64,000 nucleotides of DNA, from positions 16,244,001 to 16,308,000 of the forward strand of contig CM022665.1 in the NCBI GenBank assembly GCA_012295275.1. Direction: 5' to 3'. The position numbers and the translations under genes are program-made. Shown here in pieces: positions 3,598 to 62,494 of the stretch (its first letter is position 1; the number at the start of each line of letters is the position of its first letter). The DNA is from Chrysomallon squamiferum. Taxonomy: Eukaryota; Animalia; Mollusca. The notes under the pieces are model-generated. The model was not told the DNA's origin, searched no databases, and saw nothing but the letters and a program-made list of their open reading frames with translations.

Positions 3598-6500
3598 ATG
3601 GATGTGGTCGCTTCTGCTCTTATTTTAACATTTCTGTCTGGTGCCATGTGCACAAAAGACATCAACATAGTCGGCTTGTTTCCGTTTGAAGGAGAATGGA
3701 ACGGTGGGGAAGCGTTTCTTATAGCAGTTAAAATGGCTCTGGAACAGATCAGTGAAAGAGAAGATGTGCTTCCAGGTTACAGAATTAACTTCGTTTGGAA
3801 CGACACAAAGGTATGGTTATTATAAACTGTTTTGTCATCCTCTTTGCCGTGTTTGTTCATTGAGATTTTGAATATGGATAGTGGTCATTTACTGACTTTT
3901 GTATAAGTTAGTTTCCTTCTTTGTTTTTTCTTTCTTTTTTTTCTTTATTTATTTTGTTATGGGGTGTCGTTAAACAAAAAAATATACAATACAAAACTGT
4001 CGTATATATATTCGCTTGACATCGACTAGCCAAATTTTATTTTTACGTTCTGGATGACAGGGGCCGGTTTTTCTTATCAGTTGTTAGAAAGCAGGACTGC
4101 CGAGCAACAGGACGCAGGATCAACTACGTGCATGCGCCAATCTCGTCAGTGTTCTAAAACGGGTTTAATGCGAATTGTGATGTGTGTCTTCTTCTTCTTC
4201 TTCTTCTTTCTTCTTCCTCTTCTTCTTTCTTCTTTTTCTTAAAATTAAACTGGCTCGCATCAGTTACAAAGTGGATAAAATAAATCCGAAACTGATTACA
4301 CTACATTTTTGTTCTTAAGCTATCATAGATTTAGAAAATCTGTTGTGACTTTCTAGTGTGATCCCGGACTAGGAGTAAATGCTCTGTTTCATCATCTCTA
4401 CACCCCTCCAGCTAAGGTGACTGTCATAGGCGGTCTCTGTTCACTCGTCACAGAAATGACCGCTATTGTCACATACAGGTGGAATATTGTACAGGTGAGA
4501 ACATTTTGTTTTTGTTTAATTATCAGAATTAAGTGTTACAATTGCATATAGATAATACAGACATACATAGCATACATACATACATTCATATATACATGCA
4601 TACATACATAAATACATACATACATACATACATTATACATATATACATATATATGAATACACATAAACAAATACACACATACATACGTATACATGCAGAC
4701 ATACACACATACACACACATACACACACATACAAACATAAATACATACACAAATGTGTACTTACATAGATGGATTTACAGAAAGCGTACCGTTTTATTTA
4801 ATTTATCTTACACTATTTCTACATTAAACAAGCAAACTTTTTTTGATAATCTGATAAACAATTAAACAGAAAATCTTTTTTTTTTTTTACATATTTTTTT
4901 TTTTTTTATTTTTTTTTTTATTTTATGTGTGCATTCATGCGAGTACATTTTCTTTTTTTCTTTGTGTGTGTGTGTTTTTCTGTTGTGTTTTTGTTATTTG
5001 TTTATTTGCTTGTTTGCTTTCTCTAAAACTAATGAATCGGAGATCAGTATATATATACGTGAGTGTGTGTGTGTGTCTATGTGTATGTGCGTGTGTGTTT
5101 GTATATATATATATACACACACATACACGAAATTATAATCCATTTGTCCATCAGATGTCAGTGTACTTGAATATGTAATAGATATACAATGAATTGTTCA
5201 AAAACATTTGCTTGTCGTACATAAAACAATAGTAAAGGAAACGTACTTGGAGAATGTTTTTTGTTGTTGTTGTTGTTGTTGTTTTAAATATTATTTTCGA
5301 GCAGATGTCACCGGGTACCGCGTCGCCAGCGTTGTCAGATAAAACGAAATACAAGAAATTTCTGAGAACGAATTCACCCGATAATGACGTCAACCCAGCC
5401 CGCATCAATTTGTTCAAGGCATTTGGTTGGTCAAAAATAGCAACAATTTATCAACCTTATCAGCTGTTTTCAATGGTGATTATATTTATTGATTAACAAT
5501 ATTAGTGTACAAAGGACGGTGACAGAATCTGTACTGAGTGTGGTGTATAAGGAGCGACTGTGTGTGTGTGTATGCGAATATGTGTGTTTTTGTAATGATG
5601 CGCGTATGTTATGGCGTAAACTGCTACCTAGCTGTAGACAGATTGTCGGAGGGAGGCATAAATGCTGTGTGACAAATGTTAAAATATACACCAGTCTTTT
5701 AAAAAAAAGCAAAACACATGCGCAGACAACCATGCGCAGAAACAACATATTCTTAATGTCCTGTTTTATAAGTTATTATTTTATTAAAGATATATGATTA
5801 TTTTAATAGTATTTTTACTCGCAGGCCTTTTTTTTTTTTTTTTTTTTTTTTTTTTTTTTTTTTTTTTTTTTTTCAGAGCAATGATAATTTACTTGGTTTA
5901 TTGAAACAAAACGGAATGACGATATTAACATCAGAAATCATAGGACAAGATCCAGCAATTCAGTTACAGAAATTAAAGGTATCTCATTCATGTATCAGAA
6001 GTATATATATATATCTTATTGTATCAGGGCAGAATTTAATCAGAAACTAAACTTAAAACCTGCAATAATTTCAGTTTAGTTTATCTTCAATAATTCAGCA
6101 CAAAGTAGGTGAAAACAAAGGAAATTTGTTTTCTTTATTGCTGTATTATTTTAATTAGTTTGTAAAGAAGAAAAAAACGGTATTGCTAGATTGTTTTGTC
6201 TTTATTGTCAAGGATTGTTTCAGGTATAAAATAAACAAATTTCGGATTTGGGACTTATTAAGATGAAGCAAATTTCTAAAAAATTTAATTCGATTGTCAT
6301 GCAACATTATTCCTTGCTAAGATCATAACATATATAAATTATTTCAAAATAAATTCGAAATAAATAGCCAGTTTCTTTTTTAAATATTAACTGTAATCGT
6401 TTTATCGCTGCTATTGCTTGAACATTTTAATGAATGAATGAAGGAAGGAATGAATAAATTAATGAATAAATAAATCTATAAATAAATTTCTCTAACTGAA

Positions 6501-61300: not shown

Positions 61301-62494
61301 TCGATAATACTAGTAATACCAAAAGTTGATATCAATATGAATTAAGTATTAATACAATATACGTTAAGTATTAGTATTTAATTAAGACCACACAGATATG
61401 ATTTACTGCACTTCACTATCAAGAGGACCGCCACTTTTCTTGATTAATAACAATTTCAGATAATGTACATGCATGGATGCATATACCTGTTATAAAATGA
61501 AGCATTTCCTTCCTAAAGTAATGGATATTCAATAAAACTGATAGCTTCGAAATATTATTTACTAAATATCTGGAAACGAATTCAACAACGCAGAAATAAT
61601 CTGTGAAAAATACAAACACATTATTTCGCATCATCTGTTTGTAAGGTTATTTTTTTTTAGAAAACAGCTTTTGTCATTTATTTTCATTTTATACTCAGAT
61701 GTTTTCCTTTATGCTCGTGCAAACTCTTTATTTTTTTTATTATTATTTTTATTATTTTATTTATTACTTTTTTAAAATTGTTTCCACGCCATTCTTTATT
61801 TCACATCTTTACTACGATCCAGTCATTGCCGTTCAAACCGATAGGAAACAGGTAGTAGGACCAGCCCATCTTAACAAAACAAACCCTATCAGTGCCCCAA
61901 AACTTGTTTACCCACTATAGCGTATTACTCTCTAGGTGGGAAGCAACCTATTTTGTAATTCCTAAAAATGTTATTGTCTCCATCTTTTACTATCTCTCAT
62001 TTTTTTCTGACTCTTCCTTAGTTAATGCTGCTCAGTGGTCTCGCTAGACCATTTCCATACAGCGACACAATTGATTTAACAAAGGCTGTTGTTTTCCTGC
62101 TAGGATGAAGTGCGTGTAATATATGTTCTAATAATCGATAACAGAGTGACATCCATCTCCTCTTTCTCTCTCTCTCTCTCTCTCTCTCTCTCTCTCTCTC
62201 TCTCTCTCTCTCTCTCTCTCTCTCTCTCTCTCTCTCTCTCTCTCTCTCTCTCTCTCTCTCTCTCTCTCTCTCTCTCTCTCTCTCTCTCTCTCTCCCTCCT
62301 TGAAAGTATTCTAAGCATTTTACCTCTGAAAATATATCCAAATTTTCATGAACTGTTGTTATCTGGGTCCATCCAAACGCTTTGAAGAGTGCCACTTTAG
62401 CAGGGTTGACATCTGTCTCTGGAGAGTTCGTTCTTAGCAGCATCTTAAATCGTGATTTGTCTGACAGTGCAGGCGACGAGGAAGCAGGTGAAAG
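52396..62494 (-). CDS. Gene D: GABA-B receptor-like class C GPCR, 5'-partial (homologues of exons 3-15 visible)
   Basis: Exons (minus) 62494-62324, 61075-60974, 60381-60316, 59577-59241, 57550-57392, 56955-56878, 56471-56321, 55705-55588, 55155-55048, 54502-54380, 53547-53404, 53053-52865, 52497-52396. Internal exon sizes identical to gene C, no stops. First two exons not seen before 64000. Confidence 0.9.
58930..59238. repeat. 33-bp minisatellite after the 337-bp VFT exon of gene D
   Basis: About 9 units homologous to the gene C repeat at 43140-43326. Confidence 0.85.

Follow-up and report, generated by a model that had tools for sequence, protein, structure and literature searches.

Four paralogous receptor genes, here called A to D, lie in a 64-kb stretch of Chrysomallon squamiferum DNA (the window, which is the whole stretch analysed), and these belong to the GABA-B branch of the class C GPCRs. 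The explanation that we favour, and consider on balance the probable one from their sequences, is that A-D are non-canonical GABA-B-like receptors whose gene copies multiplied in a gastropod lineage that includes Gigantopelta, and that each is a self-contained sensor, coupled to Gi/o, for small organic molecules that are not GABA. A single chain would both bind the ligand and activate the G protein, signalling through Gi/o without a requirement for a GABA-B1/B2 pair, and dimers would form with the same receptor or among family members. The pocket would still grip an acid group but no longer the gamma-amine, and the ligand would differ between paralogues and could come from the surrounding water, from the gut or from the symbiont organ. 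Copies would be made by local duplication and kept by purifying selection, with exon-sized tracts swapped by gene conversion.

Structure and transcription of the four genes

Self-comparison and translated searches found four homologous exon sets in the window, for which exon boundaries were placed by hand at AG/GT sites and subsequently joined by script. The resulting class C GPCR paralogues follow a 15-exon plan with intron phases identical in all four, and the modelled introns all end in AG (54/54) and start with GT in 53 of 54 cases and with GC in one. The modelled exons are free of internal stops and frameshifts. The joined models bear out the common exon structure, phases and open frames of the original prediction, with the claim of four intact genes holding for A and B, which are complete, but not for C, for which no start codon was found, or D, of which only exons 3–15 are present.

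Gene A (3598..13060, + strand) is complete and encodes 723 aa in 15 exons (3598-3810, 4357-4494, 5305-5475, 5877-5978, 6835-6900, 7765-8098, 8773-8931, 9205-9291, 10063-10213, 10781-10898, 11184-11291, 11546-11668, 11980-12123, 12431-12619 and 12992-13060). Gene B (14324..23715, − strand) is likewise complete, with 736 aa in 15 exons (23715-23497, 23089-22952, 22563-22393, 22070-21969, 21610-21545, 20882-20546, 19902-19744, 19393-19301, 18622-18472, 18251-18134, 17486-17379, 16793-16671, 15789-15646, 15183-14995 and 14416-14324). Gene C (37758..~48127, − strand) has an open frame of 732 aa in 15 exons (48127, a 5′ edge that is uncertain, to 47900, followed by 46371-46234, 45872-45702, 44742-44641, 44231-44166, 43665-43329, 42486-42328, 42041-41964, 41666-41516, 41022-40905, 40311-40204, 39789-39667, 38983-38840, 38371-38183 and 37844-37758), and since there is no in-frame ATG upstream of its signal-like stretch, the start must sit on an exon that was not found. 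The 615 aa of gene D (52396..62494, − strand) come from exons 3–15 (62494-62324, 61075-60974, 60381-60316, 59577-59241, 57550-57392, 56955-56878, 56471-56321, 55705-55588, 55155-55048, 54502-54380, 53547-53404, 53053-52865 and 52497-52396), and its exons 1 and 2 were not found in 62495-64000. With A on the + strand and B, C and D on the − strand, A and B are arranged tail-to-tail rather than head-to-tail. A family profile search detected no further copy or stray receptor exon in the window, and the 14-kb gap between B and C (23716-37757) is devoid of receptor exons and of convincing ORFs. The window starts in a satellite (1-1309) in which a 32-bp unit is repeated 41 times with 89% matches and which continues beyond the window start, and intron 1 of gene C contains a 97-codon open stretch (47002-47292, + strand), GC-richer than its surroundings and without a Pfam match, which is possibly a transposon remnant.

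Transcription was compared for gene B exons 1–7 only, and these were spliced in one of three RNA runs (contigs of run X1, depth ~5), which comes from a metatranscriptomic library without tissue label. Five joints in run X1 correspond exactly to predicted intron lengths (407, 322, 358, 662 and 643), while the sixth is represented by adjacent pieces, and the contigs also include a loose end with the sequence of exon 8. The 662-base skip matches intron 5 (20883-21544), the GC-AG intron. Over the same exons, run X2 gave mostly short intronic pieces and two other runs (X3 and X4) left the exons uncovered; neither outcome is counted as evidence of absence. A pseudogene reading was rejected for A and B, though not for C and D, on the basis of their complete frames, dN/dS well below 1 and the RNA for B, and haplotype duplication or a collapsed assembly was rejected as source of the four copies, given protein identities of 55–84% and unrelated introns.

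Phylogeny and evolution of the array

The Pfam domains ANF_receptor and 7tm_3 matched nine of the 11 window exons tested (E up to 0.05), and window exons also match GABA-B chains in the PDB. All four genes combine a Venus flytrap with a 7tm_3 domain over a short linker, without a cysteine-rich domain, and are nearer to GABA-B than to mGluR. The closest proteins belong to the vent snail Gigantopelta aegis, followed by those of abalones, Lottia, Owenia and Littorina. We constructed an IQ-TREE phylogeny of 52 rows, leaving out near-duplicate fish GABA-B1 sequences, fragments and most unnamed rows, and with no GABA-B2, GABA-B3 or GPR156 rows included. A and B group with the Gigantopelta model P0001 (100/100), four Gigantopelta models group with C and D (100/99), and all of these fall within a clade of 12 rows made up of the four window genes and eight Gigantopelta rows (100/100). 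This clade is nested in a clade of 30 rows (100/99) that also holds abalone, limpet, periwinkle, Babylonia, bivalves, Owenia, Capitella, Priapulus, Saccoglossus and Ptychodera, and which lies apart from eight GABA-B1 rows (100/100) from fish, arthropod, nematode and abalone, the abalone's own GABA-B1 being among them. By this phylogeny A-D are members of a separate bilaterian GABA-B-like clade, found in gastropods, bivalves, annelids, a priapulid and hemichordates.

One-to-one orthology with conserved GABA-B1 was rejected, as the original prediction had supposed, by the separate clades, by an AU test on a 22-row subset in which the window genes and five Gigantopelta rows were joined with abalone GABA-B1 (p-AU 9e-34), and by bit scores, since against human GABA-B1 and B2 the abalone GABA-B1 control scored 957 and 534 bits, respectively, versus 537 and 476 bits for a full-length family member. 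Family members score lower on GABA-B2 than on GABA-B1, and among the canonical subunits the tree covered GABA-B1 only. A species-specific burst was also rejected, as the window genes interleave with Gigantopelta paralogues and holding the four together was rejected in the 22-row subset (p-AU 2e-40). The interleaving implies that the A/B versus C/D split predates C. squamiferum. The expansion was originally predicted to be lineage-specific, which stands only for the lineage common to Gigantopelta and not for the four genes as a monophyletic group or for the bilaterian-wide parent clade.

That the family is multiplied and clustered is supported by the four genes in the window and by the grouping of Gigantopelta paralogues on contigs. 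The Gigantopelta relatives XP_041350710, 712, 716, 735, 736, 739, 832 and 845 and XP_041351419 are all located on a contig of 120.6 Mb, and the published annotation of this species (PMC7895826 supplement, counted independently of the tree rows) lists 39 KOG1055 rows, of which 34 are models with a GABA-B name, in groups of 5, 4, 3 and 3 on single contigs plus five pairs, some of which may be split genes. Truncation or mis-splicing affects several Gigantopelta RefSeq models; in P0001 an additional stretch around 118-142 is modelled with low confidence, and a signal-peptide start is missing from P0002 as it is from gene C. The expectation that GABA-B genes are low-copy is contradicted by Nikitin et al. 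2023 (PMC10133484), according to which GABA-B-like genes are not low-copy beyond vertebrates and insects.

Protein identity is 72% for A/B and 84% for C/D, with cross-group pairs at 55–57%, in agreement with the predicted subgroups. The divergence between paralogues is substantial, as had been claimed, but patchy, with three C/D exons being 98–99% identical. These lie in tracts on the − strand that cover exon 6 plus a 33-bp minisatellite in intron 6 (43143..43667, partner 59055-59579, 95% over 528 bp, exon 334/337), exon 9 plus the upstream intron (41514..41739, partner 56319-56544, 98.7% over 226 bp) and exon 12 plus flanks (39596..39810, partner 54306-54523, 92% over 218 bp, exon 120/123). 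Synonymous-capable codons differ between C and D at 1/104 in exon 6, 1/51 in exon 9 and 0/35 in exon 12, compared with 23–57% in the other ten exons; none of 10000 permutations was as uneven, and the identity reaches into flanking introns. The tracts likely arose by exon-scale gene conversion, although they may instead represent assembly error, and conversion may have inflated the grouping of C and D in the tree. A tract in exon 13 of A and B (11989..12126, + strand, inverted partner 15643-15780, 95.7% over 138 bp) is a possible further conversion, with 4/43 synonymous-capable codons differing (0/10000 permutations), but is a softer case since the cross pairs B/D and A/C also reached 40/10000 and 893/10000, respectively. 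The intron 6 minisatellite begins at the donor site in both C (43143-43340, 6 copies) and D (58948-59252, 9 copies), and some units repeat donor-like letters which could offer alternative donors.

Pairwise dN/dS was 0.10–0.22 where dS is finite, and 0.07–0.22 outside the converted exons, where dS is near saturation. Judged from these ratios A-D are under purifying selection, with no sign of positive selection in the pairwise comparisons. In unconverted exons the flytrap of C/D is 71% identical versus 84–87% for the 7TM, whereas the two hardly differ in A/B (71% versus 74%), a point against the favoured explanation.

Ligand pocket and signalling half

The flytrap scores 260 bits on GABA-B1 versus 183 on GABA-B2 and <30 on mGluRs, and a predicted model of the A/B orthologue P0001, made from 38 sequences (pLDDT 87), fits the GABA-B1 flytrap best (1.8 Å rmsd over 404 columns). 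Both flytrap disulfide pairs are present wherever the exons exist. GABA is described as contacting W65, S130, S153, H170, Y250, W278 and E349 (PMC12499500), with the amine held by H170 and E349 and the acid end by S130 and S153 (10.1101/2020.04.15.004267). A-D do not carry the complete set of seven: W65 and S130 are retained in the three genes in which they are present, and Y250 and W278 are retained as well, but H170 is replaced by N in 4/4 window genes, E349 by M, I, Q and Q in A, B, C and D, respectively (a position also anchored gap-free from the following YD motif), and S153, which reads A, V, S and S, is lost in two of the four. Position 349 is never acidic and mostly hydrophobic in all 12 rows of the clade, and together with its neighbour it is among the most variable clade sites (1.95 and 2.5 bits, versus a mean of 0.98 over the flytrap). 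The likely conversion left C and D nearly identical in exon 6, where the W278 and E349 positions lie, and this too counts against the favoured explanation. Every canonical GABA-B1 row having these columns retains both H170 and E349.

The intracellular side of these receptors is of GABA-B2 type. Exons 11 and 14 of gene B (TM3/ICL2 and ICL3) match GABA-B2 before GABA-B1, and S515, K574, R577, V578, I581, F582, L686 and D688 of GABA-B2 are retained in all four genes. Mutation of S515, R577, V578, I581, F582, N584 or L686 was reported to impair Gi coupling (PMC8222003), and six of these seven residues are present in all four, with N584 being N in A and B but H in C and D. The C-terminal tails comprise 22–33 residues, versus 129–148 in full-length GABA-B1 rows, and are, judged by length, too short for a coiled coil. 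No ER-retention RxR motif is found in the tails of A-C, and there is one RSR in that of D.

Candidate functions and relation to known receptors

Self-contained sensing of non-GABA ligands has to be weighed against readings that keep GABA as the ligand or remove the ligand altogether. If A-D still responded to GABA or a near analogue through a rebuilt pocket, as neuromodulators or settlement-cue receptors, this would fit the retention of W65, S130, Y250, W278 and the disulfides, and modelling and whole-animal pharmacology have been used to argue that Nematostella homologues without H170 and E349 bind GABA and baclofen, making H170 dispensable (10.1101/621060). The loss of an acidic residue at position 349 throughout the clade, the S153 replacement in A and B, and the conservation of H170 and E349 in canonical GABA-B1 speak against this reading, and we consider it rather improbable. 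More doubtful still is that A-D are ligand-free coupling or constitutively active subunits, comparable to GABA-B2 or GPR156, which partner another flytrap receptor. Their GABA-B2-type intracellular residues are consistent with such a role, and GABA-B2 is itself characterised by lost GABA contacts (10.1101/2020.04.15.004267), but their flytrap is nearer to GABA-B1 with four of its contact residues retained, the tails are short, and several diverged copies would be hard to explain for a passive partner.

Where such sensors would act separates two further readings, each a minority possibility and about equally likely. An external chemoreceptor array, expressed in the tentacle, the osphradium or the oral epithelium and with a parallel in the vertebrate V2R/OlfC and T1R receptors, would agree with the clustered, multi-copy family in both snails, the variable pocket and the birth-and-death pattern with conversion; against it count the absence of a sign of positive selection, the deep copies kept in two species, which suggest a turnover slower than that of typical V2R arrays, and the fact that published tissue lists with genes of this name concern the internal oesophageal gland, although the gland was compared there with foot, gill, mantle and scale rather than sensory organs. 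The alternative is internal sensing of nutrients or symbiont metabolites in the gut or the symbiont-hosting oesophageal gland. In one peltospirid, three GABA-B-named models (two with adjacent ids) are 22.6-, 13.9- and 2.5-fold higher in the gland, with the GABA-B term in no other supplement of that study (12 of 13 searched), while four GABA-B-named Gigantopelta models are on the gland list, and gene B is present in a metatranscriptomic library. Counting against the internal role, the gland-list ids are not mapped to the A-D clade, 4/34 models on the list (12%) is near the background of 1782/21438 (8%), none of the four Gigantopelta models is in the largest contig groups, and relatives occur in the non-symbiotic abalone, limpet and periwinkle.

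Likenesses to known receptors are divided over the two halves of the protein. GABA-B1 (human 4MQE, fly 9JQX, abalone XP_046543396) provides the best flytrap match in sequence and fold, with the same disulfides, the W65/S130/Y250/W278 set and the lack of a cysteine-rich domain, but A-D differ in clade, in the missing H170 and E349, in their GABA-B2-type intracellular loops and in their short tails. GABA-B2 and GPR156 have the intracellular coupling residues in common with A-D and give the best PDB matches for the TM3/ICL2 and ICL3 exons; GABA-B2 differs by its long tail, the flytrap of A-D being GABA-B1-like with S130 and W65, and GPR156 is without the flytrap that A-D have in full (PDB matches cover the 7TM only). 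The Gigantopelta aegis proteins called 'GABA-B receptor subunit 1/2-like' are 64–74% identical for the best pairs and include both the A/B and C/D lineages, but these names are automatic, many models are partial, and the C/D lineage was either duplicated separately in each species or homogenised. V2R/OlfC and T1R are vertebrate clustered flytrap class C GPCRs with shown sensory expression. A-D resemble them in being clustered and multi-copy, but V2R/OlfC and T1R are of the mGluR/CaSR branch and have a cysteine-rich domain, whereas A-D are off that branch and lack the domain, and the sensory role of A-D is putative.

The idea of GABA-B-like expansions as sensors is already published. Non-canonical expansions were described in Trichoplax (37), Saccoglossus (29), Amphimedon (21) and Stylophora (16) by Nikitin et al. 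2023 (PMC10133484), outside the R1/R2/R3 clades and proposed as amino-acid or nutritional sensors; that account considers this diversity lost in most Bilateria, and the eight mollusc rows that it gives are all R1-R3. GABA-B-like and chemoattractant class C receptors of Dictyostelium also appear in the literature. The receptors described here are similarly multi-copy class C GPCRs of the GABA-B branch, in a 30-row clade that includes Saccoglossus and Ptychodera, but differ in representing a branch that protostomes have kept, with members in gastropods, bivalves, annelids and a priapulid, and whose genes have multiplied in clusters. A gastropod GABA-B-like expansion is absent from the main texts of PMC7142155 and PMC7736800, and no description of one was found in a literature search which did not cover most subscription journals. 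The protostome branch, the combination of a B1-type flytrap with B2-type signalling and a short tail, the clustering in vent snails and the conversion tracts appear undescribed in the literature searched. A bolder and more speculative version of the favoured explanation, which we put forward tentatively, is that vent snails made an overlooked GABA-B side branch into clustered single-gene chemosensors that read vent-fluid or symbiont metabolites, each joining a GABA-B2-type signalling half to a GABA-B1-type flytrap whose tuning has shifted to non-amine acids; this would be the first protostome class C chemoreceptor array, and would offer a living model of how the receptor worked before B1 and B2 divided their labour.

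If the favoured explanation is correct, molluscs keep and multiply a GABA-B-like branch called lost in most bilaterians, masked by the automatically assigned label 'GABA-B subunit 1/2-like'. A single chain would then do both jobs that are split between vertebrate B1 and B2, so that the homodimeric ancestral state which has been proposed (10.64898/2026.09.08.749565) would become testable with a single cDNA. Studies of snail chemoreception have dealt mainly with class A GPCRs and ionotropic receptors (PMC11682238), and A-D would provide named candidates for receptors through which snails chemically detect food, settlement cues or products of their symbionts.
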